A stretch of 63,650 nucleotides of DNA, filler included, from Malassezia furfur (GCA_052055015.1; 13 parts of 13 records of this genome joined end to end with filler, not necessarily neighbours in it); one strand, 5' to 3'. Positions 634 through 58,859 are shown, counted from the whole stretch's first letter. The notes: generated by a model not told the origin, from the letters alone. Program-made: numbers and translations.

Positions 634-1543
634 ATGCCCTCGATCAAGATTGCGCCGAGTGTCCTGGCGTCCGATTTGGGCAACCTAAACGCAGAATGCA
701 AGCGAATGATGGAATGCGGGGCTGACTGGCTTCACATGGGTATGCAGCACGCGCTCACGCAGACATCATGGACGGCCACTTTGTCCCCAACATTGTGCTG
801 GGCGCTCCCGTGCTCAAGTCGGTCTACCAAAACGTGCCAGATATTTTCATGGACTGCCATATGATGGTTTCAGAGCCCGCAAAGTGGATCAAGGATATTG
901 CAGACGCAGGTGGCGCATCATACACGTTCCATCTCGAAGCGACAGGTGCGCCCCACTGACCACTTACCCAGACGACCCACTCGACGTCGTGCGGCAGATC
1001 AAGGCCGCCAACATGCGTGCTTCGGTCGCCATCAACCCGGGCACACCTGCGAGCGAGATCTCGGACGAGCTCGGGAAGGCCGTGGACATGATTCTCGTAA
1101 TGACTGTCTGGCCCGGCGCGGGCGGGCAAAAATTCATGAAGGAGTGCATGCCCAAGGTCGCCGAGCTCCGTGCGCGCTTCCCAGACCTGGACGTGGAGGT
1201 GGACGGCGGCGTGGGTCCCAAAACGATTGACCGCTGTGCGGACGCGGGTGCGAACGTGATTGTGGCTGGCACTGCCGTGTTCAACCACTCAGATCCCAAG
1301 GCCGTGATTGCCTTCCTGCGCAAGCAATGCGAGCGTGCGCAGGAGCGCATCCGCGAAGAGCGCGAGATGCTTGCGCGGGGCGAGTCGCTCAGCGACCTCG
1401 ACAAGAACAAGGGATACACCTCCGGTTCGGTCACGCCCTGGTCGCATCCGCGAGTATACATGCCTCGGCGCCGCAGCTCGGGCACAAAATCGCCCCCTAC
1501 TGGCAAGTTTGGCAGCAGCATCACCATGCAGCCCATCCATTAG
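634..1543 (+). CDS. RPE1: Ribulose-phosphate 3-epimerase
   Basis: KIAPSVLASD, WLHMDIMDGHFVPN, YTFHLEA, LVMTVWPGAGGQKF, VEVDGGV, GANVIVAGTAVF; introns 740-762 (23 nt) and 946-971 (26 nt) join three ORF-track pieces. Confidence 0.95.
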
Positions 1544-1614
1544 TCCCGTCCATAGGGATCTGTACGTAACACCAATGTGGAGGCCCAGGCGGGGCTGGTG
1601 CGTGGCAGCCCACC

Positions 1615-2838
1615 ATGTCGGAATACTTTGCTTATGCGGGGCTCCTGAGCACCGCATCAGCGTGTGTGTTTGTGGCGAGCTATGCTGCAATGCATACACC
1701 CATGAAGACACGCGAACTGCGCAAGGAGGCAGGCATCGACGTGAACCAGGACGAAGAAGAGGGCCAGTCCCAGAACCTCTCGTCGGAGAATGCGTACATC
1801 TTTCCGGTGATTGGCAGCGTCGCACTGCTCTCGCTGTACCTGGCATTCAAGTACTTTGACAAACAAGTCATTAACTTCCTTCTGAACTTTTACTTTGCTG
1901 TCGCCGGTGCGTTTGCGATCCCGGGCGTGGTCGAGCATCTGTCCAAAGTCGCGCGCGGCGGCACCGAAGCCTACCTTGAGCCGTTGACGATTCACTTGCA
2001 GCTGGTGCCGCGCTCCAAGCTTGTTCTGCGGCTCCGTCTGCCTTGCCCCTCGCGCTGGGCGCACGAGAGCTCGTCCAAAACGGCGGGGGCTGCACCGCCG
2101 ATCACCGACGTGCACAGCCTCCCGATCGCGTCGACGCACACACACACCGTGGACCTGCTGGGGTTCGTTGTGATGGGAGTGTACCTGTACACGCGGTCGT
2201 GGTGGGTAACGAACATTGTGGCAGTGAGCTTTGCGATCCAGAGCATCATGCTCATCACGCTCGACTCGTTCAAGACCGGGTTTATTTTGCTCGCAGGCCT
2301 CTTCTTCTACGACATCTTTTGGGTGTTTGGGAGCGCGCGCCTCGTCAAGTCGGGCCCCTCGGTGATGGTGAGCGTGGCGACCAACTTTGATGGGCCGATC
2401 AAGATTTTGTGCCCCAAGAATCTGGTCCAAATCGCCACGGCCTGGTCACAGTCCAAGACCGTGCCCAAGCTCGCGTTTGCCCTGCTCGGCCTGGGCGACA
2501 TTGTGATCCCCGGCGTGTTTGTGGCGCTAGCACTTCGCTTTGACCAGCTGCATGCGTCAACCAAGCAGCCGGGTTTGCACTTTACGCGCTTCTTCCGCGA
2601 CTTCCCCAAACCCTACTTTACGGCGTGCCTGGCGGCGTACGTGGGCGGCCTGGTGACAACCATGGTCGTGATGCATGTGTTTGGTGCGGCCCAGCCGGCC
2701 TTGCTCTATCTTTCGCCTGCATGCTCGCTATCGGTGGTGGCTGTTGCGCTCCAGCGCGGCGAACTGCCCGAGCTCTGGCGCTGGGAAGACCGTTCCATTG
2801 AGCCCTCGCCGGTGGAGGAGAAATCGAAGGATGCGTGA
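1615..2838 (+). CDS. Signal peptide peptidase (GxGD intramembrane aspartyl protease, A22B)
   Basis: YDIFWVFG, LGLGDIVIPG and QPALLYL motifs; multiple hydrophobic segments. Confidence 0.93.
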   Translation: MSEYFAYAGLLSTASACVFVASYAAMHTPMKTRELRKEAGIDVNQDEEEGQSQNLSSENAYIFPVIGSVALLSLYLAFKYFDKQVINFLLNFYFAVAGAFAIPGVVEHLSKVARGGTEAYLEPLTIHLQLVPRSKLVLRLRLPCPSRWAHESSSKTAGAAPPITDVHSLPIASTHTHTVDLLGFVVMGVYLYTRSWWVTNIVAVSFAIQSIMLITLDSFKTGFILLAGLFFYDIFWVFGSARLVKSGPSVMVSVATNFDGPIKILCPKNLVQIATAWSQSKTVPKLAFALLGLGDIVIPGVFVALALRFDQLHASTKQPGLHFTRFFRDFPKPYFTACLAAYVGGLVTTMVVMHVFGAAQPALLYLSPACSLSVVAVALQRGELPELWRWEDRSIEPSPVEEKSKDA

Positions 2839-2880
2839 AATATATAGCCTCCACACGTGCGAAATTTTCGTGCATCCAGC

Positions 2881-4877
2881 ATGGCGTGGCGTGGACGACC
2901 TGCCAAGGCACGGTCTACAACGCGCCTTCCGGCGGCACTGCGTGATGAACTGGGTCTTGATGCGAACGGAATCCCTAGCACGAATGAGCCCCGTGCAAAG
3001 CGCCCGCGGCTGAATGCAGCTGCATCGCGCAAGGAGCAACGGAAGCAGCAGCGGCATGCGAAGCGTGGGCCGACGCCCAAGCGACCCTGGCATACGCACG
3101 AACAAGGCGCACCGGGGGTACAGAAGGAGCCAAAGGAAACACAAGCACCCACGCGGGGGCGCCCTGCGGCACAAGAGTCGCCGCGCGCACGTCCGTCCGC
3201 ACCGGCCAAGCAGGCCACTGCCCCGCGCAACCCTACGACGTCCAAGACCGCGCCGTCTTCGGACCAGGATACCACGCGCACCATCATGGACCCAATTACG
3301 GGTACCACCCGTGTGGTGCGCAGCCGCTCGTCTGGTGCCGGCCCGACCAAGCTCGAGCGGCTCATGGCCAAGTCGGGGCTGCCCGCCGAGGCCCCAGAGC
3401 GCCCGTCTGCGCCGCGGCCCAATCGGCCACTGAGCGCGGCCGAGCAGGACGAAGAAGACGAGATCCGGTGGCTCGAATACCAACTGTATGGTAAAAAGCG
3501 CGCAAATGTGCAAGAAGGCGACGACGTGGATGGTACGTGCGAAGACACTTACGCAGAATTGCTCGATGACTTGGACCGCCTGCACGCTACGTTGGGCGAG
3601 CCGGGCAGTGAGGAAGGCGAAGAAGAGGAAGAGGAAGAAGACGACGCAGAAAATGCGTCGGATGCAGAGGGGTCTATGAGCGATGATGCGTTTGGTGCAG
3701 ACCTTGATGAGCTCGATGCGATGGTGGACCCGGGTGTGTCCGATGAGGTGGACGAGGAGAGCGAGGAGGAAGAGGATGAGGAGGAAGAGAGTGACGAGGA
3801 GGAAGAGGGTGACGAGGAAGAAGAGGAAGAAGCGTCTGACGACGAGGCAAGCGAGGAAGAGGTCGATGCCGACAAGCAGTCCACCGAGGTCGAGGCCGGG
3901 CAACCTGCCGGGCCGTCGTCGGCCGCGCCGACCAAGTATGTCCCACCCGCGATGCGTGCGGCGGCCAAGGACCGTGACGAGGCACATGCGTTGCAGCAAC
4001 AGAAACTGCGTCGGCACGTGAATGGTCTGCTGAACCGTCTGGGCGAGGGCAACGTCGACACCATCCTGGGTGAGCTGGAGTCGCTGTACCGCACGTATGC
4101 ACGTGGCGACGTTACGTCGATGCTCACGCAACTCGTCCTGGATACCATTGCGGCGCGCACGCAGCTGAGCGAGACGATTGTGGTGACGTATGCGGTGTTG
4201 CTCAGCGCGATGCACCGTGTCGTCGGTGTGGAGTTTGGTGCGTTCTTTGTGCAGACGTGCATGTCGCGCCTGCTCGCCGTGTACACGACGTACCTGTCGC
4301 GCGCCGATGCGAGCGACGAGGAACAGAGCGCGTGGAGTCGCGAGTGTGTGAACCTGGTGCTGCTGCTGTGCCACCTGTTCAACCACAAGCTGCTGTCTGC
4401 GGGCCTGGTGTACGACTTGGTGCGCCTGTTCCTCGGGTGCGACTTCGTCGAGATGGTGCCTGCGACGCACGGCGGCAAGCGCATCACGGAGCTCGACATT
4501 GAGCTGGTGCTGCGCATTGTGCAGAGCAGCGGTGCGCAGCTGCGCCGCGACGACGCCGCGTCGCTCAAGACGATCGCCGAGCTGATCAAGCAGCGTCTGG
4601 ACGAGGCACACGGCGCGTCGGACATCGTGGCGGACTCGAGCCGCGCGCGCTTCATGCTCGAGACACTGCAGGACCCGCGGCAGCACAAAAAGGCCGCGGG
4701 CACCGCCGGCAGCGACACCGCACAGCGGCTCGGCAAGTACCTCTCGACGCTCGAGCGGCGGCGCACACTGCGCACGCACACAGCGCTGCACGTCGGCCTG
4801 CGCGATCTGCAGGACGCCGAGACCAAGGGCCGGTGGTGGCTCGTGGGCGCGGCGTGGGCCGGCCACGGCGCGGACGA
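2881..4877 (+). CDS. SGD1: Nucleolar MIF4G-domain protein Sgd1/NOM1, 3' truncated at spacer
   Basis: Basic N-terminus, acidic tract, KYVPPAMR, GLLNRLGEGN, SGAQLRRDD, KGRWWLVGAAW; probable in-frame intron 3533-3556 (24 nt). Confidence 0.9.
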
Positions 4878-4977
4878 NNNNNNNNNNNNNNNNNNNNNNN
4901 NNNNNNNNNNNNNNNNNNNNNTTAATTAATTAANNNNNNNNNNNNNNNNNNNNNNNNNNNNNNNNNNNNNNNNNNNN
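4878..4977. other. Artificial contig spacer
   Basis: N44-TTAATTAATTAA-N44 (stops in all six frames), identical at 12 sites. Confidence 0.99.
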
Positions 4978-10634: not shown

Positions 10635-11386
10635 CTATCCGCGGAAAATCCACGTCTGGTCCGCGGTGACGAGCGCATCGAGCGGCACGTCCGTCTCGCC
10701 CGTCGGCACGGGCTCGGCGCTGATCTGCTCACGGAGCGCGACCGCGACTGGGTCAGCCGTGCACGTACCGATGTAGGGGACGCGCGCCTTGCGCTCCTGA
10801 GCGAATGCGTGCGCACGGCGGATGTAGCGGTCGTAGTACCCCTTGCCATGCCCGAGCCGACCGCCGTTCGTGTCGAACAGCATGCCCGGCACGATAATCA
10901 GGTCGAGACCGGCGCCGCCCGTGAGGAGCGCTGCATGAGTTAGGTGCGCACGTACCGTCTTCGCGCGCGGCGCCTTCGCGCAGCGGCGGGGGCTCGGCAA
11001 TGCCCCACTTGTTCGCCGTGAGGCCGTTGTCGAGTTCGTGGACGTCGTGCACGCGGAGCATCTGCATGTCTGTGGTGAACTTGTGGTCTTCCGACGCGCG
11101 TGCGCCCGCGCTCAGCGTCGAGAAGCGCGGCACGTACAGGCGCTTGCCGAGCGTGAGCGCGGCGCGGCTCAGGGCCCACGTGTCGAGTTCGCCGGAGGGC
11201 ATGCTGAGATAGATGCTGACGTTGTGCGCGTGCTGGAAGGCCGGGAGGCGCTGCACGGCCTCGCACACGGCGTGTGCTGTGTCAAGTGTGCGGCGTACCC
11301 TGCTCGTCCAGCGAGGCGCGCGGCACGCGCGCGAGCACCGCCGCGGCGTGCTTCCGGCACGCCGTCTTCGCGGCCGCCAGCGACAT
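10635..11386 (-). CDS. FAU1: 5-formyltetrahydrofolate cyclo-ligase
   Basis: SIYLSMPSGELDT, NKWGIAEP, LDLIIVPG, RLGHGKGYYDRY; introns 11277-11298 (22 nt), 10931-10955 (25), 10748-10768 (21). Confidence 0.93.
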
Positions 11387-17341: not shown

Positions 17342-19185
17342 ATGGCGACGCGCCCCACGTCGTCCACGGGGCAGTCGTACCCCGCGGTGCTGGGCTACCA
17401 GATCGTCCAGCTGCTCGGCGGCGGCGGCTTCTCGCGGTACGTGCGCCCGCTCACCCCAGCGTGTTCCGCGCAGTGAATCCTCAGTCTGCCGAGCACCCCC
17501 AGGCCGCGGTCAAGGTCGTGTCGTACGCCTCGACGACGCACCGCCAGCCGGTCGACCGCCGCGCGCTCCAGAAGGAGGTGCAGATCCACAGCATCTTGAA
17601 GCACCGCAATGTGCTCGAGTTCCTCGGCAGCGTCGAGTACACCGCGTCGTCCGCCGCGCCGAGCAACTACGTGCGGGGCCTCTACATCCTGCTCGAGCTC
17701 GGCGCGGGCGGCGACCTGTTTGACAAGATTGGTACGTGACGGGCTCACAAGGCAGCGCCTGATGTCGGCGTCGACGAGGACCTCGCTCATTTCTACTTCA
17801 CCCAGCTCGTCTCCGGCCTCGTACGTCGCGCGCTCTGACCCAGACCTACATTCATACCCAGGGCGTGACCCACCGCGACATCAAGCCGGAGAACATGCTC
17901 CTCGACGCGCAGGGCAACCTCAAGATCGCCGATTTTGGGCTGTGCAGCGTGTACAAATACAAGGGCAAGGAACGCACCCTGCACGGCACCTGCGGCTCCC
18001 TGCCGTACATTGCGCCCGAGATGAATGGGCAGCCCTACCACGGTGAGCCCGTGGACGTATGGAGCTCGGGCGTGGTGCTCTTTGCGCTGCTCGTGGGCAG
18101 TACGTCGACCCACTCACACAGACACGCCGTGGGACGAGCCGACGAGCCGGAGCCCAGAGTACCGCGCGTACCTCTCTGGCGAGCTGCTGCGCCTGGACCC
18201 GTGGACGCGGATCGGCGGCGACGCACTGTGTACGTCGCTTGCTTCGCTAACCCAGCGCTGCTCCGCCGCATGATGCACCCCGACCCCAAGCGGCGCTCGT
18301 CGCTCGAGCAGATCCAGCGGCACCGCTGGTTCACGCGGCCCAATGCGCTGCTCACATCGGGCAAGTGCAACGACCCCGTGTCGCTTGCCGAGCGCCTCTT
18401 GCAGGGCCTCATTGTCTCTGGCGACGTGCAACTTGCGCTGCACAGTGACGGCCAACGCGCGCCGGTCCCGGAAAAGTACGTCGCCCGCTCACACAGCGTG
18501 TCGCTCTCGCAGCCGGAAGCGATGCAGTCGCGCTCGCTGGGCCTTGGGCGCGACGACGCGATGCCGTCGTCGACCGCGCAGCCGGCGCTGCACCCCCGCC
18601 GCGGCCTCGCCGCGTCGCAGTTCGCGCGGCCGTCGGCGACGCAGCTAGAGGACCACGCCGCAGAGTTTACCCAGGCACTGGGCTACTTGGTACGTGGCCT
18701 TCCTGACCCAGACGCAGTCGAGCGCTGTGCCGTACGGCACCGCCATGGCCGTGCACCTCACGCGCTTCTACTCGGGCGACGAGCCGCCGCACGTCGCTAC
18801 GGCGCTCACTGCGGCGCTGGAGCGGCAAAAGGCGCAGTTCAGTGTGGAGCCGTTGGGGCAGGACACGGAGCTGCAGGAGGCATACGAGGACATGGAGCTC
18901 GGTACGGACGGCGAGACGCGGCCATCGCAGCCGCTCGCGGGCGCGCGCGGCGTGCGCATCCGCCTCGGACTCGTCGACCGGCGCAAGTGTGCGCTCAAGG
19001 GCGAGATTCGCATCGAGCGCCTCGCCGAGCTGCCCCCCGAGCTGGCGCATGCGGCCAAGGGCACCGCGCCGAGCTTCGTGTTGATGCGCCGCAGCAAGGG
19101 CAACCCGCTCGAGTGGCGCCGTCTATTCCGCAATGTGTGTGCGGACGCGGGCGTGCGTGAGCTGATCGCGCGCCCGGCTACATAG
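17342..19185 (+). CDS. CHK1: Checkpoint kinase Chk1
   Basis: GGGGFS, GGDLFDKIAPDVGV, HRDIKPEN, DFG, GNTPWDEP, C-terminal LTRFY and KGNPLEWRRLF; introns 17437-17459, 17732-17755, 17821-17843, 18100-18121, 18230-18255, 18476-18496, 18690-18711. Confidence 0.93.
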
Positions 19186-41505: not shown

Positions 41506-43536
41506 ATGGCCAAGGTCGCGAAGCGCACCAAAAAGTTCGTCAAGAACCGGCTCGAGCAGACGCTGCAGGAGCGGCGCGACCACAAGAAGCGCTCGGCGCA
41601 TGTGCGCGAGCGCCAGGCCAAGCAGTCGCGCCGGCCTGAGCGTGCGGCGAACCACGACGACGAAGAGGACGACGCGCCGGTGCACGACGCACCGCAGGAC
41701 ACGTGCGTGTAGAATGACTGACGCAGGCCCGCCAACGACGTGGATGCCTTTTTGCAGGGCGGATTCGAGGCCGACATGGGCAGCGAGAGTGAGGACGACG
41801 AGGCGAGTGCCGCAGACGACGACGACCTCGACGCGATGGACGACGTGTCGGACGACGAGGGCGGGCATGTGCAGGACCTCGAGAAGCTCAAAGAGACCGA
41901 CCCCGAGTTCTACAAGTACCTCCAAGAGAACGACCGCGACCTGCTGCAGTTTGGCCAGGGCGGTGACGAGGCGGAGGCGATGGACGCCGACGACGACGAG
42001 GAGGAGGCGGAGGCGAGCGACGAGGACACCATCCCTGTCGTGACGCCCGAGATGCTGCGCCAGTGGCAGCGTGCGCTGCTGCGGCACAACTCGCTGCGTG
42101 CGCTGCGCCGCCTGCTGCTCGCGTTCCGCTCGGCGGTGTACACAGGCGACGAGGAGGGCGAGTATGCCTACCGCATCGAGGACGGCCCCATCTTCTCCAA
42201 GGTGCTGCTCACCACGCTGAAATACACGCCCAAGGTCGTTGCGCACCACGCGCCGGCGCGGCGCATGCCTGACGGCCGGTACAAGGTGCCGACGCACACG
42301 AAGAAGTGGAGCACGTTGGTGCGCCCCATCCGGAGCTTCTTCTTGAGCGTGGTGCAGCTGCTCAAGACGCTGCCGGAAGCCGACATGGTGTATGTTGCGC
42401 TCACCGAATCGGCCAAGATGATTCCCTACCTGCACCAGGACCGCCGCGTGGCGCGCGAGTACATCAAGCAGCTGCTGCACCACTGGAGCAGTGGGCAGGA
42501 CAAGGTGCGCCTCGCGGCCTTTTCGTGCCTGTATGTCGCGACGAGTGCGGCGGCGGACGAGATGGTCGACTTCTGCCTCAAGGGTGCCTACCACACGCTC
42601 GTGCGCAGCACCAAGCAGACGACGCCGCACACGATGCCCAACATTGTGCTGATGAAGAACACGGCGTGCGAGCTGTTTACGCTGCACCCCGACGCCGCGT
42701 ACCAGCAAGCGTTTGGCTTCATCCGGCAACTAGCCATCTCGCTGCGCAACTGCCTCAAGCTCAAGACCAAGGAGCAGTTCCAGAGCGTGCTCAACTGGCC
42801 GTACCTGCACTGCCTCGACTTCTGGTCGATGGTGCTCGCCAAGACGTGCTGTGACGAGCGCGAAGAGGACGGGCCGAGCTACATGCGCCCGCTCATCTAC
42901 CCCCTCGTGCAGGTGGCGCTCGGTGTCGCACGCCTCGTGCCCATCTCGCGCTACTTCCCGCTGCGCCTGCACATCGTGCGCGCGATGCTGCGTGTGATGC
43001 AGGCCGCGCACGTGTATATCCCGCTGGCGGCGCTCGTGCTCGAGGTGTTTGAAAGCCCCGAGTTCCAGCGGCGCGCCAAGGGCGCGACGCTCAAGCCGCT
43101 CGATCTCGCGACGACCTTCCGTGCGCCGGTCGCGTACGTGCGCACGCGCATCTACGCCGAACAGCTCGCCGACGAGTTTGCGTTCGTCCTGCACGAGTTC
43201 CTCGCGACGCAGGCGCGCAGCATTGCCTTCCCTGAGCTGATCATCCCCGTCACGACGCAGCTGCGGCGCGTGCTCAAGACCGGGCACAACGTGCGCATGG
43301 CCGAGGCGCTGCGCCCCGTGCTCGACAAAGCCCAGCAGAACGCCGTGTGGATCGAGCAGCGGCGGCAGGGCATCGAGTTTGCGCCGCACGACCACGTGCA
43401 GGTCGAGCGGTTCCTCGTAAACGACACGGCCGAGGCGCCGCTCGATGCGGCGCTGCGCCTCGCGCGCAAGGTGCGCGTGCAGAAGCAAAAGCTGCTGGAG
43501 CAGAACGCACACGTCGTGGGCGACGACGAAGAATAG
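41506..43536 (+). CDS. NOC2: Nucleolar complex protein 2
   Basis: TKKFVKNRL, LKETDPEFYKYLQEND..LLQF, YQQAFGFIRQLAI.LRN, LIYPLVQV, SIAFPEL; intron 41703-41726 (24 nt). Confidence 0.95.
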
Positions 43537-46315: not shown

Positions 46316-47308
46316 ATGGCCCAACGCTTGTTCGTCGTCGGAGGAAACGGGTTTGTCGGTAAGTGCTGCCCGCTCACACAGGCTCGGCGGTGTGCCGCAC
46401 GGCACTTGCACGCGGATGGGAGGTGCAGAGCATTAGGTACGTTCCTCGCCGCAGCCGCTGACCGCCAGCGGGAGCGGCCGTCCGTTCCGCACGCCCAAGG
46501 GCCACGCCCCGGCATGGACCGAGTCGGACAAGATGCATTGGCACAAGGCCGATGCACTGCATCCCGACCAATATAAGGAGATCGCTGCGTCGTGCACGGC
46601 CGCCGTCCACACCATCGGCATCCTGATGGAGTCCAAGTACAAAGGCAGCAAGGGCTCGGCTGCCGGCATCTTCCAAGGCCTCGCCAAGGGCTGGGGGCTC
46701 GGCGACAAGGGAAACCCGCTCGACACTCAGGATGCACTGACCTACGAAAAGATGAACCGCGACTCGGCGATCGCGGTTGCCTCGACGTTCGCCGAGGTCC
46801 AGCAGGCAAAGCACAACAACGAAGTGCCATTTGTGTACATGTCGGCAGAGGACATTATGCGTCCGATCATTTCGCCGCGCTACATCTCGACGAAGCGCGA
46901 GGCCGAGGTTGCGATCGCGACCATCGCCGAGCAAGAGTTCCCGCCGATTTTGCGCGCGGTGTTCATGCGTCCTGGTACGTGGTCCGGCGCTCACACACAG
47001 GGTTGATGTACCACCCGCACAACCGTCCGTGGTCGACGGTGCCCGCAACGCTCATTGATGCATCCAACTACATGCACCGTCTGCACCGCAAGTGGAAGCT
47101 GCCGATCCCGTCGCCGGCCGACATCCTCGCGAGCCGTGCGGTGCCGCAGGCGCTGCATCCGCTGTCGGCCGCACTGACCACGCCGCCGCTCCATGTCGAC
47201 ACGGTTGCGCACGCGGTGCTTGCAGCAATCGAGTCGGAGCATGTGCGTGGTGCACAAAATGTCGAGGCAATCCGCCAGCTCGCCGGCTGGCCCGCCCAAG
47301 TTGAGTAG
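46316..47308 (+). CDS. COQ11: Atypical SDR / NAD(P)-binding protein, Coq11-like
   Basis: VVGGNGFVGSAVC, VHTIGIL, TYEKMNRDSA, FVYMSA, RYISTKREAE, RPGLMY; introns 46359-46381 (23 nt), 46437-46468 (32), 46975-47000 (26). Confidence 0.85.
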
Positions 47309-47474: not shown

Positions 47475-49220
47475 ATGTCGCTCTGGGCCGGATTCACCTG
47501 GTACGTACGCGTGTACCGAACTAATGCAGCTATGTGTCCAAAGGTACGCTACATGCGCCCGGGAAACTCACCGCACAGAGACGTATACGTTTGTGCCCAC
47601 GAACCGCGGCGACCCACCGCGCCCGCTGCAAAAGCTTGTGATCGACCGCAAGACTAGCACGCTGTCGCTCCAAGGTAGGTGTTGCGCGCACTCACATGCC
47701 AGACACCGACTCGCTTGATGTGCCAAAGTACGACAAGCAGTTCATTGTGCACGGGATCCTCGGTGTGCTGTCGCTGCACACCACCGACTTTATGGTGGTG
47801 GTGACGAACCGCAAAAAGGTCGCGCATATCCTTGGTGCCAACGTGTACCTTGCGACCGACTTCCGCATGCTGCCGCTCAATACAGAGGCGAACCCGACGC
47901 TGCTGCGGAACCCGATCGAGAAGCGCCTGCTGAGCTTGGTGAAAGAGTCGCTCTACTCTGGCCCGCTGTACTTCTCGTACGAGTACGACGTGACGAGCTG
48001 CCTGCAGCGCCAGGTCAAGCACGAGTTTGGCCCGGATGGCTCGAAGCTGCCCATGTGGAAGCGCGCGGACGAGCGTTTCTTCTGGAACTACCACCTGCAG
48101 GAGCCGCTCATGCGGCATGCGCAGGACCTGAGTGCATTTATCATGCCCGTCATGTTCGGCTTCCTGGAGGTGAAGGTCGCCCAGATCCACCAGCGCGCGT
48201 TTGTGCTCGGCCTGGTCGCGCGCCGTTCGCGCTACCGTGCCGGGACGCGCTACTTCTCGCGCGGCATTGACGCCGAGGGCCATGTGAGCAACTACAACGA
48301 GACGGAGCAGTTTGTGCTGGTCGATCCGCCGAGCGGCAGCGTGCCGACGAGCATGGAGGAGATCGAGGGCAAGGCGCGCATGAGCTACGTGCAGACGCGC
48401 GGCTCGGTGCCCGTGTTCTGGGCCGAGGTGAACAACCTGCGCTACAAGCCGGACCTGCTTATCCCCGCGGATCCCCGCACGGTGGTGAGCGCCCGCCGGC
48501 ACCTGGACGAGCAGGTGGAGCTGTACGGGAAGAACTACCTGGTGAACCTCGTGAACCAGAGTGGCTACGAAAAGCCCGTCAAGGACGCGTATGAGCAGGT
48601 GGTCCAGGAGGTGAGCCATCCGCTGGTGCAGTACAACTACTTCGACTTCCACCATGCGTGCAAGGGCATGAAGTTTGACAATGTGCAGCTGCTCATTGAC
48701 CAGCTTGAGCGCGAGGGCCTGCGCCCGGACGACTACTTTATGCTCGACACGAACGGCACGCCGCAGGTGCAGCTGCAAAAGTCGGTGGTGCGCACCAACT
48801 GCATGGACTGCCTCGACCGTACCAACGTGGTGCAGAGCATGCTCGCGCGCCTCGTGCTCAACGAGCAGCTGCGCTCTGTCGAGATTTTTGGCGCGGGCGA
48901 CCGCGTCGAGGACCACCCCGCGTTCCTGTACCTCTTCCGCAACGTCTGGGCGGACCATGCAGACGTGATCAGCAAGGCGTACTCTGGCACGGGCGCGCTC
49001 AAGACCGACTTTACGCGCACCGGCAAGCGCTCGATGGAGGGTGCGCTGCAGGACGGGCTCAACTCGCTCACGCGCTACGTCAAGAACAACTTCTTTGACG
49101 GGGCGCGCCAGGACGCCTACGACCTGTTCACCGGCGCGTGGGACTCTGCGACGCAGACACCCGAGGTGGTCGTGCAGCCGTGGACGGTGCGCATGATGCC
49201 GTGGCTGCTGTGGGTGTCGC
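47475..49220 (+). CDS. SAC1: Phosphatidylinositol-4-phosphate phosphatase Sac1, 3' truncated
   Basis: RRSRYRAGTRYFSRG, QTRGSVP, RTNCMDCLDRTNVVQ, YSGTGALKTDFTRTGKR; introns 47501-47529 (29 nt), 47544-47578 (35), 47675-47702 (28). Confidence 0.96.
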
Positions 49221-49320: not shown

Positions 49321-49380
49321 GATCGGGAGAAAAAAATTTAGGGGGCCGCGATCCGATAGTCTTCGCGTAACCTCCACACC

Positions 49381-50541
49381 ATGGGCAAGCGGGGGCGCGG
49401 CAAGCTGCGCACGGCGCTCGCGAACCACCACGCGCGCGTGCAGCAGCGGCGCGCCGAGAAGCAGCATGCCGAGGCCGTCGAGGCCGCAGGCAAGCGCCGC
49501 ACACGCGCGCCGCACACGCCGCACGCGCCGCAGCGCGCGCCGCGGCACGTCCAGCCGTTCGCGCGCGACGATACGGTGCTGCTCGTCGGCGAAGGTACGT
49601 GCGCCGCTCACCAGGCAACTTTTCGTTCACGCTCTCGCTTCTACGGGAACCCCACAGCCACCCGCCGAGCCAGCTGCTCGCGACCAGCCTCGACACCGAG
49701 GAACAGGTGTGCGAAAAGTACCCTGACGCACGTGCGATCCTCGCCGAGATCCGGGCGCGCGCAGGGCCGTGTGCGGACCGCGTGCTGGCGTTCGGCGTGG
49801 ACGCGGGCGCACTGCACAAGTGCGCGGCGGTCACGGGCGGCAAGGGCGCCGCGCCGCGCCGGTGGAGCAAGGTCTGGTTCGGCTTCCCCCACGTCGGTAC
49901 GTTGCCGCACGACTCACGCAGGCGCGGGGCACAAGGACGAGCAGCGCAACGTGCTCGCGAACCAGCTGCTTATCCTGCGGTTCCTCGTATCGGTTGCGCC
50001 GTACCTGACGCACGGCGCGGTGCCGACGTACGCCGCGAACGTCAAAAAGGCGCGCAAGGCCGAGAGCGACGACGAGGACGACGACGAGGGCGACGACGAG
50101 GACATCGACGGCGGCAGCAGCGACGCGTTCGCGGCGCCCGCGGGCGACGCGACGTGGCGCCCGCTCGCGCCGCCGGCGCGCCAGGGCTCCGTGCTGATTA
50201 CGCTGCGCAACGCCGCGCCGTACACGCAGTGGAACGTGCCGATGCTCGGCAAGCGCCTGCGCACGGTGCTGCCCGCGATCGCGGCCGCGGCGCCCGCGCT
50301 GCCGAAGGCGATGCGCGCGCCGAGCGTGCAGGACGTGGAGCGCAACGACGCACAGTATACCCTATGGCGGAGTTTTGCCTTTTTCCCCGAGGACTGGCCG
50401 GGCTATGCCCACCGGCGCACGATCGGCTGGGTCGAGGGCCTGAGCACGTCGCACAACGAGGACCTGCTGCGCACCGCCACGGCCGCCGGCGCGTGCCGCA
50501 CGTTCGAGCTGGGCCTCGGCGCGCCGGCCGCCTCCACTTAG
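49381..50541 (+). CDS. BMT5: 25S rRNA m3U methyltransferase Bmt5 (DUF2431)
   Basis: After splicing 49595-49614 (20 nt) and 49897-49921 (25 nt): [42 protein letters not shown]. Confidence 0.9.
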
Positions 50542-52148
50542 AAGCCCCAGTGGAACTGGGCGCCGCCGCCGCCAAACTGCCCGCCGTGCTGCCGCGCAAA
50601 CTGCTGGAACGCGGCGTTCTGGAACATCTGCTGGAACGCGTCGCCGTGCGCGTACGCGTCGCCGTAGTTCGCCTGCCCGCCCGTCGGATCGTTCGGGTCG
50701 TCGCCCTGGTCGTAGCGCGCACGCAGCTCGGCGTCGCCCAGCACGCCAAACGCCTCGTTGATCTCGGCCATCTTCTCCTGGCTGCCGCCCTTGTCGGGGT
50801 GGTGCTCGCGCGCGAGCCGGCGGTACGCCTTCTTAATCGTGCGCTCGTCCGCGTCGCGCGCCACCCCGAGCGTCTTGTAGTAGTCCTTGCTCTTCGACTG
50901 CTTCAGCAGCTTCTGCGCCTTGACGAGCCGCGCGTGCACATCGCGGTCGTGGTGCGAGTGCACAAACGCGTCGTTCAGCGCCGCGACCGCCTCGTCGTAC
51001 CGCCCGTTCGCCAGGTGGTCCTCGCCGCGTGCCACCAGCGCCGGCACACTGTGGGGGTCGCGCGCCAGCAGCTTGTCGCAGAACGGCATCGCCTTCTTGA
51101 ACAGCTGCTGCCCGCTGTACGCGCGGCAGTACAGCGTCTCGAGGTCCGCGACAAGCGCGCTCTGCGCCGCCGCATCGCGCACGCCGCGCGGCAACAGCGG
51201 CTCGCCGTCCGCGTCGGGCGCCTGCGCGTCCGCGAGCACCTGCTGCACCTCGTCGAGGACCGTCGGGCCGCCGACCTTGGGGCCCTTGAGCGCACTCACG
51301 ACGGCCGTCCAGCTGCCGGCGTCCGCAAACTGGTGCGCCTTGCCGAGCGCCTTGCTGATCCTGCGCAGCTGCTTGTGCGCCTGGCGGCACGCGCGGTTGT
51401 CGGGGTCGTTGTGCAGGCACGCCTTGAGGTGCGCGAGGCCCGCGCGCTGCATCTGCGAGTCGTACGTCCCGAGCACGTAGTAGGAGAGCAGCGCGAGCCG
51501 CCGCTGCAGCGCCGGGCTCGGCGCAAGCGCCGCGACGCGGTTCCAGTCGCTCACGGCGTCGTCCAGCGCGCCCTGCGCGACGTGGCACGCCGCGCGGTGC
51601 CGCCGCGCCGCGAGGTCGTTCGGCGCGTCTTTGAGCAGCTCGCTGGCGAACGCAATGCACTCGGTCGCATGCCGCGCGTCGGTCGGCAGCTTCGCGAGGC
51701 GCGCGCTCAGCTTCGCGTCGTGCTGCACCGCGCGCTTCAGCGCGTCGGCGTCGGCGTCCGCCGGCGCGTGCGCCGCGAGCGCCGCGAGCACGTCCGCCGC
51801 GCGCGCATACTCGCCCTCTCGGCGGAGCAGCTTGGCCTCCTGCACGTACGCCTTTGCGAACGACGGGTGCCGCGCGCGCGCCGCCTCGAGGTCCGCGAGC
51901 GCCGCGGCGGTGCGTCCGAGCGCCTGCTGCGCCGTGGCGCGCCGGAAGTACGAGAGGTATGCGTCGGGGTCCAGCGCAATCGCGTGGTCAAACGCATCGA
52001 GCGCGCCGGCGTAGTCGGACGACGTCAGCGCGGTGTTTGCGGCGCGCAGCCACTCGGACACGGAGCGTGCCTCCTCGGCACACACATCCAGCACGCCCGC
52101 AAGCAGCAGGGCGAGCGCGACCAGCGCGAGCCGCACGAGCGTCTGCAT
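50538..52148 (-). CDS. ER-luminal TPR/J-domain co-chaperone (DNAJC3/P58IPK/Jem1-like)
   Basis: Signal peptide [21 protein letters not shown] repeats, [22 protein letters not shown]. Confidence 0.92.
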
Positions 52149-52168
52149 CCTTCGCGCACGCTCCAGTC

Positions 52169-52178
52169 GACGTGGAAG
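52169..52178. promoter_or_regulatory. UPRE-like element GACGTGGAAG between DNAJC3-like gene and BXI1
   Basis: Resembles the XBP1/Hac1-type TGACGTGG element; lies in a 125-bp divergent promoter of two ER-stress genes. Confidence 0.5.
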
Positions 52179-52273
52179 GAGGAAGTATGCGTGCCGGGAA
52201 TTATGGCACCGCACGCCCTCGCCACCCCGCATCCGCACTAGCGTGGCGCACCCTTGTCCGGCCCCTCCTCGCG

Positions 52274-53097
52274 ATGCCCGCCGACGCTCCCCCGCCGTAC
52301 ACGTACCACTCCATCTCGCAGGACGAAGAGGCACAGCTCGCCGACAGCGACGCGTTCAAGGTCGACGTCACCGTCGAGCAGAGCGACCCAGAGGTCCGCG
52401 CGCTGTTCGTCCGCAAGGTCTACAGCGTGCTCTTCCTGCAGCTGCTCGGCACCGCCGTCGTCGCAGGCGCCATGTCGACGTCCGGCGCCGTCGCTTGGGT
52501 CCAGCAGAAGTACGCCACACACACTCACGCAGCTCGTGGTTCCTGTTTGTGCCGCTCATCGGCTCGCTCGCCTCGCTCGGGGCGCTGTACTGGAAGAGCC
52601 AGTCGCACCCCGCGAACCTCGTGCTCCTCGCGCTGTTCACACTGATGGAGTCGCTCCTCCTTGGCACCGTCGTCTCGGTCGTGGACGTCGCGGTGCTCTT
52701 CAAGGCCGTCGTACTCACTACGCTCGTGTTTGGCGCCTTGACGGCCTTTACGCTACAGACGCGCTACAATTTCGAGTCGCTCGCATCCTACCTGTACTAT
52801 GGGCTGATGCTGCTTGTCGGCGTCGGGCTCGTGCAGCTCTTTTTCCCGTACAACCACACGTTCGAGCTGCTGTACTCGGTCGCGGGGTGCGCCATCTTTT
52901 CGGGGTACATTTTGTTCGACACCTACCTGATCCAGCAGCGGTACGTTTCTTATTTTTTGGGCTAATCCAGTTTGTCGCCGGACATGTGGGTGCTTGCGAA
53001 CGTGTCGCTGTACCTCGACGTGGTCAACCTGTTCCTCTCGGTGCTGCGCAGTACGTCGAATGCTCACGCAGTCCTCAACGCCACTTCGGACGACTAG
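52274..53097 (+). CDS. BXI1: Bax inhibitor-1/TMBIM family protein
   Basis: [48 protein letters not shown]; introns 52510-52532 (23 nt), 52941-52970 (30), 53051-53071 (21). Confidence 0.92.
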
Positions 53098-53132
53098 ACG
53101 ACGCACGGCGCAGATGTGGCGGCACGCGGCCC

Positions 53133-53265
53133 GTGACATGGCGGCCGTGACATGAGCAGTCAGTGACATGGGCGCCGCTGGCCTTGCCCCTGGCACCCCT
53201 TGGCCTTGGCACCCTTGGCTTGGCGCCGCTCGGTCCTCGGCCCACTTGGCCTGGCACCGCTCGGC
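53133..53265. repeat. Degenerate intergenic repeat array
   Basis: GTGACATG x3 (53133, 53147, 53163) then ~6 copies of GGCRCCNCTYGG with ~15 bp period. Confidence 0.65.
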
Positions 53266-53358
53266 GACGGCGGCCTTTGCTTCGTCACATGCAGAGTACA
53301 CTACAAAAGTACAGAGCGGTGGCCCATCACCATTCCGGGACGGACGCGGGTATACAGA

Positions 53359-53904
53359 TTAGGTCATGAACGACTCGCCACACCCACACGCGTCCTTGAC
53401 GTTGGGGTTGTTGAACACAAACTTGGCCGACAGCTTGTCCTCCTTCCAGTCCATCTCGGAGCCGATGATACTGAATAGCGCGCGCGAGTCGATCAGCACC
53501 TCGACACCGTCCTGCTTGACGCGCTCGTCAAAGCGCCCGGCCTCGGACGGGTCGATGTATTCCAGGTGGTAGCTCATGCCGGCACACCCCTTGTTGCGGA
53601 CGCCGACGCGGATCAGCTTCGGGCCCGACGCATTGTCGCGCAGCGCGCGGATGTGCTCGACGGCCTTGGGCGTGAGCGTCATCGCGGCCTTCTTCGCGGC
53701 CCGCTGCTGCAAACGCTCCGAGACCGAGTTGCGTTTCTCTTGCACACTCGACGGCTTCGCCATCGGCGGCGGCGACGACGCCACGGGCGTCTCGCTCATC
53801 CGCTTCTTTTCAATCGCGCTCCGCGGCACACTCGTCGAGAGCAGGCGGGCCGGCGGCACACACGCCGCACGGCCCCCTGCGCGCAAAGCCAGGCGTCCGA
53901 GCAT
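53359..53904 (-). CDS. ISA1: Mitochondrial A-type Fe-S assembly protein
   Basis: Presequence; LTPKAV, GVRNKGCAGMSY, IIGSEMDW, FNNPN..ACGCGESF. Confidence 0.95.
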   Translation of the reverse strand: MLGRLALRAGGRAACVPPARLLSTSVPRSAIEKKRMSETPVASSPPPMAKPSSVQEKRNSVSERLQQRAAKKAAMTLTPKAVEHIRALRDNASGPKLIRVGVRNKGCAGMSYHLEYIDPSEAGRFDERVKQDGVEVLIDSRALFSIIGSEMDWKEDKLSAKFVFNNPNVKDACGCGESFMT

Positions 53905-54051
53905 GCTCGTTGCGTGTGGCGTGACGGGCGGCGGCGCCGCCTGCCGCTGGGCCTCTATGCTGACTCAGCTACGGCGCCGCGGCCAATCACCGCCGTGGAT
54001 TACTCACCCGCCACGCGCACGGGCGTGGCGTCCGCGGGCGGCGGCGCCGTA

Positions 54052-54507: not shown

Positions 54508-54553
54508 ATGCGTAGGCGCGGCGCCGGGGCGGAGTGCCTGCCGCACAAACCGT

Positions 54554-55863
54554 CTACTTGCCGAGCGTGTCGAGCGCGCTGTCGTTGAAGCCGGGCGCGC
54601 CGTGGCTCGGCGGGAAGGGGTTGTTCACCGAGCCGTTGGTCTTGAGGCTCTCGGGTGCCTTGGCGCGGCGCGCGCGCACACTGGGTCAGTTGGGCGGCAA
54701 CGTACCCCTCGCGCAGCTTGTCGAGCGCCTGCACGGTGGTCTCCCACGAGATGCACGCTGCGTCAGTCTGGCTTGTACGTACCATCCGTGATCGACTGGC
54801 CGTACGTCAAGTCGGCGGGGCCCGTCGGGGGCATGCTCTGCTTGCCCTCGACGAGGTGGCTCTCGAGCATTACACCAAACACGTTCCACGCGTTGCTGTC
54901 GCCCTGTGCGAGCTGCTCGGCGATGTTGTCCACGACCTTGATCTGGTTCTGGTGCTTCTTCTCGCTGTTGCCGTGGCTGCAGTCGATCATGATGCGCGGC
55001 GAGAGCGAGTTCTTCTCGAGCGCCGCCGAGGCGCTCTCGACGTGCTCGCGCGCGTAGTTCGGGCCGGTGTTGGAGCCACGAAGGATGATGTGGCAGCTGT
55101 CGTTGCCGGCGGTCTCGACAATGGCCGAGATGCCCTGCTTGGTGACCGACAGGAAGGCGTGCGAGCTCGAGGCCGACTTGATCGCATCCACGGCGATCGA
55201 CACCGAGCCGTCCGTGCCGTTCTTGAAGCCGATCGGCATGCTCATGCCGCTCGTCAGCTCACGGTGCACCTGCGACTCGGTGGTGCGCGCGCCAATCGCG
55301 CCCCACGAGATCAGGTCCGCGGTGTACTGCGGCGAGATGGTGTCCAGGAACTCGGTGCCCGCGGGGAGGCCCATCTTGGCGACCTCGAGCAGGAAGCCGC
55401 GCGCGAGGCGCAGACCCTTGTTGATTTGGTAGGAGCCGTCCAGGTTCGGGTCGTTGATCAGGCCCTTCCAGCCGACCGTGGTGCGCGGCTTCTCAAAGTA
55501 GACGCGCATGATGATGTGCAGGTCGTCCTTGGCCTGCTCCGCGTACGCCTTGAGGCGGTTCGCTGCGTCAGTGGGCACGCCACGCACCGTACTCGAGACC
55601 CGCCCGCACGTCGTGCAGCGAGCACGGGCCCACAATCACAATGAGGCGGTCCTGCTGGCGCTTGATGATCGCCTCCGTGTCGCGGCGCCCTTTGAGCACG
55701 GTCTCGGCCGCCTCGATCGAGAGGGGGTATTCCTCCATGAGAATTTGCGGCGGGATCACTGCGTCAGCACACACTACGTACGCGGCTTGATGCTCTTGAT
55801 GCGCCGGTCATCGAGCTCGTTCAGCGCATCGGCCAAGTGCAATGGGGCTGTCGTCTGAGTCAT
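54554..55863 (-). CDS. ARO3: DAHP synthase (class I), probably the Phe-sensitive type
   Basis: DDRRI, VGPCSLHD, MRVYFEKPRTTVGWKGLINDP, GAIGARTTESQ, IDCSHGNS, YGQSITDACI; HAFLSVTK has the Ser of yeast Aro3 rather than the Gly of Aro4; introns 55759-55781 (23 nt), 55563-55587, 54758-54782, 54681-54705 (25 each). Confidence 0.93.
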
Positions 55864-55977
55864 GGTGCAATTGTAATAGGCCGGAGCACGTTCGCACCTG
55901 CAGGGCACCTTCCATTCGTCACGTGGGCCCCTGTCCAGGTGGAGCGGGGCGCGAGCGACGCGACGCGTTGCAACGCG

Positions 55978-56449
55978 ATGTCGGAGGACGAGCGGGATTT
56001 CGGAGGAACGGGCGCGCCGGACGATGAGGAGCTGTCGCTCCCCAAAGCCACGATCCAGAAGCTGATCCAAGACTACCTGCCGAACGATATGAGCTGCGCG
56101 AAAGACACGCGCGATCTCCTGATTGAGTGCTGTGTCGAGTTCATCCACCTCGTCTCGTCCGAAGCCAACGAGGCGTGCGAGAAGGACTCGAAGAAGACGA
56201 TTGCGCCGGACCACGTCGTCAAGGCGCTTGTCGACCTGGGATTCGAGAAATATACGCGCGAGGTGCAAGATGTGCTCAACGACCACAAGCAGCACCAAAA
56301 GGTACGTGGGGGCGCGCGCGCTGACCGATCAGGAGCGGGAACGCAAGGCATCGCGGTTCGAGATGAGCGGACTCACCGAGGAGGAGCTGCAGCGGCAGCA
56401 GGAGCAGCTGTTTGCTGCAAGCAAGGCGCGCTTCGAGGCCGCTAACTAG
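55978..56449 (+). CDS. NCB2: Negative cofactor 2 beta subunit (Dr1)
   Basis: LSLPKAT, LIECCVEFIHLVSSEANE, KKTIAPDHV, SGLTEEEL.RQQ..LF; intron 56302-56332 (31 nt). Confidence 0.95.
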
Positions 56450-56534
56450 TCTCGTACCCCCATAGTGTGGCCAGCGCCGTCGGGCACGGCCGGTCCAACG
56501 ATAATTCCCCAACACTGGTTCGCCGGACGCGCAA

Positions 56535-58859
56535 ATGCTGCTGCGTACGACGCGGGGCCTCTTTTCTTGGACCGCATTGTCCGCACGCCGTCCGTGTGTA
56601 ATTCCGCGTGTTTTGGACCGCCGCTGCATCATGACCGACGTTGACATGCACCGTGACAAGCGGATTGACGGCACGAAGCTCGCCGCGTACGTACCCAAGC
56701 GCCGCGCTCACACCCCAGATCGATCCGCACCTCTGTCGCCGAACGCGTCGCCAAGCTCAAATCGGAGCACGACGGGATCGTGCCGCACCTCGCGATCGTG
56801 CAGGTCGGCAAGCAGAGCGCGTCGTCGACATACATCCGCATGAAGATGCAAGCCGCCGAGCAGTGCGGCATCCGCGCGACGCATGTGCAGCTGCCGGAGG
56901 ACGCGGACGAGCGCGCGATTTCCGCCGAGGTGCGCCGCCTGAACGAGGACGACAGCGTGGATGGCATCCTGGTGCAGCTGCCGCTGGGAGACCACATTTC
57001 CGCGGACGCCGAGCGCCGGATCACCGAGCTGGTGCAGCCGGACAAGGACGTCGACGGCTTCCACACGCTCAACATTGGGCAGCTGTCGTCGCGTGCATGC
57101 AATCCCAACTTCCTCCCGTGCACGCCGGCGGGTGTGATTGCACTGCTGAAGGACGCGGGGCTCGACGACCTCTCTGGGAAGCATGCCGTGGTTATGGGCC
57201 GCAGCGACATTGTGGGCAACCCGATGGCGAGTCTGCTGCGTGGGCGCAATTGCACCGTGACGCAGGTGCATTCCAAGAGCCAGAACGTCAAGGAGCTCGT
57301 GAAGCAGGCCGACATTGTCGTGGTGGCTATCGGTGTCCCGCGCCTCATCGAGGCCGACTGGATCAAGCCCGGCGCGGTGGTGATCGACGTCGGCACTAAT
57401 TACGTGCCCGACGCGACGAAGAAGTCGGGGCAGCGCCTCGTGGGCGACGTCAACTACGAGTCGGTGGTGCCCGTTGCGGCGGCAATCACGCCCGTGCCCG
57501 GCGGCGTCGGCCCCATGACGGTCGCGATGCTCATGGAGAATGTGCTGATCGCTGCGACGCGGCGCAGCGTGCGGCTGCAAGCGCGCCCGCGGGCGGTCAC
57601 CACGCCGAACCCGCTCAAGCTGGAGCGCCCCGTGCCGAGCGACATTGCGATTGCGCGCGCGCAGGTGCCGCGCCCGATCAGCCAGATTGCGCACGAGATT
57701 GGGCTGCTGAGCAGTGAGCTGGAGCCGTACGGCGACGTGAAGGCCAAGGTGAGCCTGAGCGTGCTCGACCGCCTGCGCGACCGCATCGACGGCAAGTACA
57801 TTGTCGTGGCGGGCATCACGCCGACGCCGCTCGGCGAGGGCAAGTCGACGACGACGATTGGGCTGGCGCAGGCGCTGGGCGCGCACCTGAACAAGCCCGC
57901 GTTTGCATGTGTGCGGCAGCCGTCGCAGGGCCCGACGTTCGGCATCAAGGGCGGTGCGGCGGGCGGCGGCTACGCGCAGGTGATCCCCATGGAGGAGTTC
58001 AACCTGCATCTCACCGGCGACAACCACGCGGTGCAGGCGGCCAACAACCTGCTTGCCGCGGCGATCGACACGCGCATGTTCCACGAGGCTACGCAGAAAG
58101 ACGGCCCGCTGTTTGACCGGCTGTGCCCCGCGAAGAAGGGCGTGCGCACCTTCTCGCCGGTGATGCTCAAGCGCCTCGCGAAGCTCGGGATCGACAAGAC
58201 GGACCCCGACTCGCTCACCGACGAGGAAAAGGTGCGGTTTGCGCGCCTGGACATCGACCCCGCGAGCGTGACGTGGCGGCGCGTGACGGACACCAACGAC
58301 CGGTACCTGCGTGAGATCACCGTCGGCGAGGCGCCCACCGAGAAGGGCCTGACGCGGCACACGGGCTTCGACATTGCGGTCGCGAGCGAGTGCATGGCGG
58401 TGTTGGCGCTGAGCCGCGACCTGAAGGACATGCGCGCGCGCCTCGGCGACATGGTGATCGGCTCGAACAAGCGCGGCGAGCCGGTCACGGCCGACGACCT
58501 CGGCGTGGGCGGTGCGCTGGCCGTGCTGATGAAGGACGCCATCAAGCCGAACCTGATGCAGACGCTCGAGGGCACGCCCGTGTTTGTGCACGCGGGTCCG
58601 TTTGCGAACATTGCGCACGGCAACTCGTCGATCCTCGCGGACGCCATCGCGCTCAAGCTCGCGGGCCGCGAGGCGAACGAGCCGACGAGCCGCATCGGCT
58701 ACGTGATCACCGAGGCCGGCTTTGGCGCGGACATTGGCATGGAGAAGTTCTGCAACATCAAGTGCCGCGAGAGCGGGCTCGTGCCCGATGCCGTGGTGCT
58801 GGTTGCGACCGTGCGTGCGCTCAAGTCGCACGGCGGCGGCCCCGACGTGTCGCCCGGCA
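56535..58859 (+). CDS. ADE3: Trifunctional C1-tetrahydrofolate synthase, 3' truncated
   Basis: [61 protein letters not shown]; intron 56687-56718 (32 nt). Confidence 0.96.

Follow-up and report, generated by a model that had tools for sequence, protein, structure and literature searches.

We analysed a 63,650-nucleotide (nt) stretch of DNA from Malassezia furfur (GCA_052055015.1), referred to here as the window, in which an initial annotation had described 47 introns, 20-35 nt long with GT-AG ends, spread over 17 genes; these segments are almost certainly real spliceosomal introns, as judged from the sequence evidence assembled below. The window joins 13 contigs of ~4.9 kb with N spacers between them (4878-4977 and 11 further spacers each read N44, a 12-base linker and N44, and are concatenation artefacts that cut genes), and it belongs to an assembly of 13.7 Mb in 1856 contigs. 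Because a second copy of most window contigs is found elsewhere in the assembly at 80-94% identity, the genome is, on this sequence evidence, a Malassezia hybrid in which most window contigs are present twice; some M. furfur assemblies have been reported as hybrids (PMC4634964). The second genome copy (homeolog) therefore provided a built-in comparison for intron conservation; for contig C653 (window 49321-54051), a homeolog search of the assembly returned no second copy.

Tiny introns in seventeen genes

We built a self-trained two-strand gene hidden Markov model (HMM) whose training set comprised the window and 20 other 10-kb stretches. Given GT..AG ends only, no branch model and a log-uniform length prior, it placed 59 of 241 calls at 21-26 nt, and these shared GTACGT and a CTNAC word. 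With learnt signals and no length preference it returned 46 short window introns and one 85-nt call, the 3' part of which is the 47th window intron; and with a length prior learnt from homeolog-confirmed introns it gave 47 introns shorter than 40 nt in 17 genes. This is the very list of the initial annotation, the length histogram being equal bin for bin (one intron of 20 nt, five of 21, four of 22, eight of 23, three of 24, eleven of 25, six of 26, two of 27, one each of 28-31, two of 32 and one of 35).

Along the window, the introns are backed by the HMM, the homeolog and a Pfam scan unless another basis is given. RPE1 (634-1543, + strand) holds introns 740-762 (23 nt) and 946-971 (26 nt), with no gap at either junction relative to other fungi, and a MIF4G-domain gene (2881 to contig end, +) holds 3533-3556 (24 nt, a multiple of three and open; motif and homeolog only). 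The 5-formyl-tetrahydrofolate cyclo-ligase gene (-) contains 11277-11298 (22 nt), 10931-10955 (25 nt; 21 in the homeolog) and 10748-10768 (21 nt). Seven introns interrupt a protein kinase gene (+) that the initial annotation called CHK1 (17437-17459, 23 nt; 17732-17755, 24 nt; 17821-17843, 23 nt; 18100-18121, 22 nt; 18230-18255, 26 nt; 18476-18496, 21 nt; and 18690-18711, 22 nt), where a spliced motif adds to the evidence, as it does for the kinesin gene called KAR3 (-; 21047-21073, 27 nt, 24 in the homeolog; 20820-20845, 26 nt) and the DAHP synthase gene called ARO3 (-; 55759-55781, 23 nt; 55563-55587, 25 nt, 28 in the homeolog; 54758-54782, 25 nt, 23 in the homeolog; 54681-54705, 25 nt). On the minus strand lie also a DUF2340 gene (19428-19448, 21 nt; 19279-19301, 23 nt, 22 in the homeolog), an APC11-like RING gene (22956-22976, 21 nt; 22829-22853, 25 nt; 22705-22729, 25 nt, 24 in the homeolog) and the HMG-CoA synthase gene (33168-33193, 26 nt; 33016-33040, 25 nt, 29 in the homeolog; 32634-32658, 25 nt; 32316-32340, 25 nt).

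A UBP6-type deubiquitinase gene (-) carries introns 41335-41360 (26 nt), 41160-41181 (22 nt), 41030-41054 (25 nt), 40602-40628 (27 nt; 21 in the homeolog) and 40324-40346 (23 nt), identified by the HMM and the homeolog, and all five junctions show no insertion in the alignment to smut-fungus homologs. The plus strand further holds a Noc2-family gene (41703-41726, 24 nt); a gene at 46316-47308 with no Pfam match on the two exons scanned (46359-46381, 23 nt; 46437-46468, 32 nt, 31 in the homeolog; 46975-47000, 26 nt; HMM and homeolog); a SacI-domain phosphatase gene (47501-47529, 29 nt; 47544-47578, 35 nt; 47675-47702, 28 nt), where a 14-nt exon separates the first two introns; a histone-fold (CBFD_NFYB_HMF) gene (56302-56332, 31 nt); and a C1-tetrahydrofolate synthase gene (56687-56718, 32 nt). 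Two more plus-strand genes, for whose contig no homeolog was found, rest on the HMM and Pfam scan: a BMT5-like gene (49595-49614, 20 nt; 49897-49921, 25 nt) and a Bax-inhibitor-family gene (52510-52532, 23 nt; 52941-52970, 30 nt; 53051-53071, 21 nt). The 20-nt intron of the BMT5-like gene is the shortest in the window, and its predicted branch A lies at position 16. An Rfam scan of the window found no family.

Evidence that the segments are spliced

All 47 window introns have GT...AG ends and a G at +5. A combined motif of donor, branch and YAG occurred 49 times at spacings of 20-35 nt (3.2 ± 1.9, maximum 8, in 30 Markov simulations), and its frequency at 36-51, 52-67 and 68-83 nt was at or near chance (3, 5 and 7 vs. 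about 3 simulated). At 14-19 nt it occurred four times (0.8, maximum 3, simulated), an excess that we read, from cases not checked one by one, as second GT words within real introns.

Conservation between the genome copies points the same way. All 42 window introns in homeolog-aligned DNA retain GT and AG; nine differ in length, six of these not by a multiple of three. When the window and 10 more locus pairs were compared, GT was retained in 112/112 introns and AG in 111/112, intron length differed in 22/111 (19 of those not by a multiple of three), and internal exon length was constant in 62/63, the remaining one differing by a multiple of three. Divergence between copies was 0.34 in the spacer, 0.27 at fourfold sites and 0.00 at G+5 and at branch T-2; the intron spacers thus diverge at a rate like that of silent sites. 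The raw count of coding indels (45/81 multiples of three) was too noisy, and whole-exon lengths were used in its place.

Removal of the introns restores a conserved reading frame in the RPE1, UBP6, Pfam and motif tests. The four protein motifs named in the initial annotation are indeed absent from the six unspliced frames and present in the spliced models (three, plus the RPE1 one), and the RPE1 (two) and UBP6 (five) junctions align to other fungi without insertion only after splicing. The statement that most of the introns are forced by homology was too broad, holding for only ~19 of 47 (these seven by alignment and ~12 by Pfam positions, which in our reading continue within about one residue across the junction); the others are supported by motif, frame and homeolog conservation. 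The expectation that such introns cause mis-annotation was borne out, with gaps or inserts at the junctions in 3/5 aligned public Malassezia models of RPE1 and 4/6 of UBP6; these errors in public proteins arise because the tiny introns there were mis-modelled. Of the same locus, we note that an RPE1 exon shares 95-96% identity with Malassezia obtusa and M. psittaci proteins, and that a public M. cuniculi model (P0021), in which neighbour order is as in window 634-2838, joins RPE1 to the adjoining gene (PF04258), probably through a missed gene boundary.

Longer introns are rare but present

The claim that there is no long intron holds for the window; it fails for the genome, where introns of about 40-50 nt and one of 157 nt occur elsewhere. 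Within the window, a 45-nt call was rejected since its AG is lost in the homeolog, as were four calls of 53-241 nt with scores below 0 and no homeolog. Among 97 calls made independently in both copies with no length prior, 95 fell at 21-36 nt, one was 40 nt and one was a merge; the ends of the 43- and 50-nt calls are conserved. By eye, the 5' untranslated region of an ADP/ATP carrier gene also shows a 38-nt intron in both copies (L105 and L106, about 1500-1560).

The 157-nt intron (L088:3483-3639, +, and L089:3483-3639) lies in a multi-RRM gene, which we take to be MRD1-like. It probably holds a box C/D small nucleolar RNA (match to Afu_335, 28.5 bits, E 0.0028, under the cut-off of 50) that a long stem closes; long introns are therefore still spliced in this genome. 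Most long HMM calls proved to fuse short introns and the small exons between them, or to skip coding sequence. Some long calls of 86-339 nt have strong signals and are either real or merged short introns (L009:9695-9953, L015:1970-2308, L020:158-413 and L005:7295-7380), and an Rfam search of these long calls gave no match that explains them.

An apparent 16-nt floor between the intron start and the computed branch point

We then took 375 kb (2.7% of the assembly), in which the HMM made 276 calls; 22 calls longer than 60 nt and six weak short calls were set aside, leaving 248 introns with a median of 24 nt and a mean of 25 nt. As in tiny-intron lineages, the mode lies below 30 nt in this sample (224/248 are ≤30 nt), and 107 of 219 gene models contain at least one of these introns. 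The donors are dominated by GTACGT (142), followed by GTATGT (31) and GTGCGT (22), the acceptor is CAG in 233/248, and a CTNAY-type branch word that could base-pair with U2 GUAGUA is present in 237/248, branch use being computed. The introns are GC-rich (62%), only 10/248 contain four U in a row, and there is no shortage of introns with lengths divisible by three (74/248).

In the 233 introns with one clear branch word (11 have none and four are ambiguous), 139 have their computed branch A at -6 and 80 have it between -7 and -9; the branch-to-AG distance thus varies, from -5 to -9 or more, and the branch word, with forms such as CTGAC and CTCAC, is degenerate. Numbered from the intron start, branch A falls at position 16 or later in 230/233, at exactly 16 in 40, at 15 in none and earlier in three. 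Permutations constrained by total length only predicted 27.9 introns before this floor (10,000 permutations, minimum 16) against the three observed, and the limit therefore seems to act on the donor-to-branch span rather than on total length. Each of the three exceptions was rejected. A 17-nt call had mis-parsed an intron that is 21 nt long; another call, 21 nt in length with a 13-nt loop, turned out to cover only the 5' part of the 157-nt intron; and a 14-nt loop at 946-971 came from a wrong branch pick, since that intron has a further branch word at -6 and the homeolog lacks the earlier one. On these computed branch points, there is no sound case of a branch A before intron position 16.

Splicing RNAs and proteins

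The initial annotation had proposed a survey for changes in the U1, U2 and U6 small nuclear RNAs (snRNAs). U2 snRNA was found in one copy only, with a canonical branch-pairing region, U6 with a canonical ACAGAGA box and U5 twice; U1 snRNA was not found in the assembly by two Rfam family searches and seven pattern searches, which are heuristic and address an incomplete assembly. Because the assembly is incomplete (U2 has one copy only) and the searches heuristic, the U1 result is no evidence of loss, and the presence of U1-70K argues for U1 snRNA being present. Two pairs of U1 candidates were discarded: one proved to be an intron donor of a ubiquitin-conjugating gene read on the opposite strand, and the other lay in the 5' untranslated region of the ADP/ATP carrier gene. 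The U2 and U5 genes have three upstream words in common (AACGGCC, CGGAAWTATTT and a TATA box), the first of which U6 has as well (L001, L108, L109, L053), and patterns built on these words matched only U2 and U5, and no U1. In both U2 and U5, the Sm site finishes with a U-run followed by CG instead of G (L001:1501-1693, -; L108:1501-1617), and the U2 stem IV loop deviates from the Rfam consensus.

Among proteins, SF1, U1-70K, METTL16, SNRNP27 and U2AF65 are present in the genome, and the SF1 KH and U1-70K RRM motifs look canonical by eye. The proposed loss or truncation of splicing factors was thus not seen in any of those searched for it (U2AF65, SF1, U1-70K, U2, U5, U6), and the five proteins are retained here, whereas the reduced spliceosomes of microsporidia and Cyanidioschyzon are marked by loss of the U1 snRNP or of many factors; U2AF35, SF3b, U1A, U1C, U4, Cwc25, Isy1 and Smu1/RED lay outside the searches. 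In budding yeasts, loss of METTL16 or SNRNP27 is linked to C at donor +4; such a loss as the cause of the +4 C here was rejected, both genes being present. A U1 snRNA altered to match that C would be another conceivable cause.

The RNA face of U2AF65 has drifted in Malassezia

The U2AF65 gene lies at L065:3-1289 (contig C938), with a second copy in L066. Compared with human, the protein has R and V at F197 and F199 (RRM1) and I at Y302 (RRM2), and the second copy agrees where it overlaps; the RNP1 stacking positions of RRM1 are non-aromatic in both genome copies, and ULM and UHM are kept. For residues other than Y152, F262 and F304, the roles and numbering used here are presumed, in part from counting along the alignment. 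Y152, F262 and F304 stack on uridines (PMC7408900).

From 120 database hits we dropped one same-species duplicate and added the query, which gave 19 Malassezia-clade proteins (a clade with the named Malassezia proteins, placed by tree with support 0.988) and 101 from other fungi. The two groups differ at Y152 (Tyr in 3/19 vs. 99/101), F197 (aromatic in 9/19 vs. 100/101), F199 (aromatic in 8/19 vs. 100/101), R227 (R or K in 3/19 vs. 101/101), N289 (0/19 vs. 100/101), Y302 (aromatic in 4/19 vs. 101/101) and Q333 (2/19 vs. 101/101). Mean identities for seven named Malassezia vs. 15 other Ustilaginomycotina were 0.52 vs. 0.67 for RRM1, 0.69 vs. 0.79 for RRM2 and 0.68 vs. 0.66 for UHM, with controls at 0.65 vs. 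0.70 (UBP6) and 0.77 vs. 0.73 (RPE1). Malassezia proteins are also mostly 440-510 amino acids long vs. about 560-730 for full-length smut-fungus relatives. On these alignments, the RNA face of both U2AF65 RRMs is eroded in the Malassezia clade and UHM is retained. Most fungi lack a 3' pyrimidine tract (PMC2483917) and yet keep these residues; the drift therefore fits introns that lack room for a U-tract anywhere.

A proposed mechanism

We consider it likely that these are ordinary major-spliceosome (U2-type) introns that have shrunk genus-wide to little beyond their signals. The plan would comprise a donor of six bases (GTACGT), at least 5 nt of free spacer, the branch word CTNAC and then ~5 nt up to and including CAG; removal would proceed by standard two-step splicing under intron definition, the intron being recognised as a unit. 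At its shortest, such an intron would offer six bases to U1 and then U6, leave about five free, pair four with U2, have branch A as its sixteenth base and close with five bases finishing in CAG. The branch word would be read by SF1 and U2 snRNA and the 3' AG reached through its closeness to the branch; U2AF65, with no pyrimidine tract to bind, may act mainly as a protein bridge, its UHM and ULM kept while its RRM surfaces drift.

The 16 nt would then be the shortest span from 5' splice site to branch that permits assembly or activation of this spliceosome, which would not be a fixed ruler, as longer introns are also removed. In human, ~50-52 nt are needed from 5' splice site to branch, with two extended helices 15 nm apart (Keiper et al., PMC6692369), in agreement with the claim that these introns are too short for the canonical geometry. 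Sixteen bases cannot take the human layout, so we infer that assembly must differ here; the extended U6/5' splice site and U2/branch helices of the human B complex would have to be shortened or rearranged, and it is in this inferred sense that the spliceosome may be called 'adapted' to tiny introns. Since the ciliate Stentor manages with 10-11 nt, it is probably early assembly or activation, and not the catalytic core, that sets the limit in Malassezia.

Alternative explanations

If the segments were retained coding or frameshifting inserts, or assembly errors, one would point to introns deduced from sequence, a fragmented assembly and the seven of 47 that have a length divisible by three and are stop-free; however, retention of the other 40 would shift the frame or add a stop, both genome copies carry the segments with conserved ends and freely changing lengths, and in the sister species M. 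sympodialis RNA-seq backs 99% of 5350 introns with a mean of 30 bp (Zhu et al., 2017, PMC5389616), which leaves this reading highly improbable. No more credible is an origin as a recent introner (transposon-derived) family or as minor-spliceosome (U12) introns. A narrow length range and a strong donor common to all would suit it, but the spacers share low-complexity words at most (the longest common substring is mostly 2-4 nt, close to shuffles), so that no similarity beyond the signals was found, and the four identical introns are one locus counted twice. In their donor and branch words the introns are of U2 type and match the U2 and U6 identified here, and they do not conform to the U12 donor and branch consensus. 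The remaining likeness to U12 introns is a short branch-to-AG distance (PMC2483917).

The chief rival holds that an unmodified fungal spliceosome suffices and that compaction shortened the introns; the 16-nt floor would then apply to fungi in general, and the U2AF65 drift would be a harmless consequence. It gains from the snRNAs found and the five searched proteins present, with canonical-looking U1-70K RRM and SF1 KH, from the continued splicing of longer introns, and from the general lack of a 3' tract in fungi and the identical branch-to-AG spacing of Yarrowia (PMC2483917). Against it, Ustilago maydis introns have a median of 95 nt (PMC2483917), the human B complex is unable to span less than about 50 nt (PMC6692369), and RRM2 identity is 0.51 between Malassezia and its own relatives and 0.73 between distant fungi and those relatives, whereas UHM follows phylogeny (0.57 vs. 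0.49); we regard this rival as possible, though on balance doubtful. We are similarly tentative about a bolder scheme, a re-engineered early pathway in which U2AF65 would bridge without reading a tract, branch and AG would be read as one block of ~9-10 nt, U1 snRNA would be too changed for family and motif searches, and U1 and U2 would bind in turn or compactly, down to a loop of 16 nt, which is one third of the minimum in human.

Several observations count against the proposal of shrunken U2-type introns and its mechanism. The junctions and branch points of this organism are predicted from sequence, the HMM drew its signals from calls that it had made itself and in its last run disfavours lengths below 20, and the method itself partly imposes the constancy of the computed branch A between copies. 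An earlier branch-like word is contained in 16/248 introns, and the 16 nt may reflect efficiency or a mutation-selection balance and not a steric wall. U1 snRNA was not found by the family and pattern searches, and its pairing with the donor is presumed. This genome retains the Y152 equivalent, RRM2 F262 and F304 are aromatic in 19/19 Malassezia-clade proteins, and the U2AF65 drift is a correlation in a single lineage.

Relation to known systems

The initial annotation had cautioned that the phenomenon may be partly described, and rightly so: published Malassezia annotation already has the size class, in the RNA-seq-curated M. sympodialis set, where automatic annotation had given introns of 50-65 bp (PMC5389616), and in M. 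restricta, where the minimum intron was set to 15-20 (PMC6473144). Automatic sets for M. globosa gave 76-79 (PMC4634964), and a review mentions 'very short introns' in Malassezia (PMC7426719). In what is accessible of the M. sympodialis paper, the introns are a table row, without signals, branch geometry or an account of the spliceosome. As short introns are already published for the genus, the surprise is capped; the size is known to Malassezia annotators and has not clearly arrived among splicing researchers. In a 2026 paper about the shortest introns of animals, ciliates, microsporidia and dicyemids are given as earlier exceptions, and the word Malassezia is absent from its accessible text (PMC13644364), as from that of the splicing reviews PMC8624252 and PMC10158995; the portions available of PMC3560662 and PMC12506658 hold nothing on Malassezia intron size, and PMC8476143, as far as accessible, uses M. 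sympodialis as an intron-poor species with no remark on size. A literature search, with subscription papers and bioRxiv supplements outside its scope, returned no account of Malassezia branch geometry or U2AF; the 16-nt floor with branch A at -6 and the Malassezia-specific U2AF65 RRM drift are additions that we did not find in print.

The 15-16-nt introns of Stentor coeruleus (PMC9505925) resemble those described here in GT-AG ends, branch A at -6, a 5-nt tail and canonical U2/U6 pairing regions; however, they are fixed in length and AU-rich, with a weak branch consensus and a loop (branch A position) of 10-11 nt, whereas ours are GC-rich (62%), with strong donor and branch words, a loop of at least 16 nt, a spread of 20-50 nt plus the 157-nt intron, and tolerance of long introns. 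Myxobolid myxozoans and Dicyema (median 22-27 bp; PMC13644364) share the size class, U2 dependence and the presence of the U2AF subunits, but have reduced splice-site motifs and a U2AF described as conserved, in contrast to the strong motifs and drifted U2AF65 RRMs of Malassezia. Yarrowia lipolytica, Trichomonas, Giardia and Entamoeba likewise lack a 3' pyrimidine tract and anchor the branch near AG (PMC2483917; bioRxiv 10.1101/2022.06.08.495308), the 2-nt spacer of Yarrowia placing branch A at -6, equal to the mode here (PMC2483917); this group has long introns (Yarrowia median 204) and a strict branch word, whereas here the 5' part is minimal, the branch word degenerate and the distance variable.

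How a spliceosome assembles on introns far below the ~50 nt needed by known structures is an open question, and ciliates, parasites and nucleomorphs account for most of the tiny-intron systems on record. Malassezia is culturable, with transformation and CRISPR tools (bioRxiv 10.1101/638429), and offers thousands of such introns, a sharply bounded minimum span and a candidate change in one protein, the last two of which could be tested with reporters. Should the tentative scheme of a re-engineered early pathway prove true, a culturable and transformable yeast would become a model for assembly on substrates whose length falls below what the known A and B complexes require.

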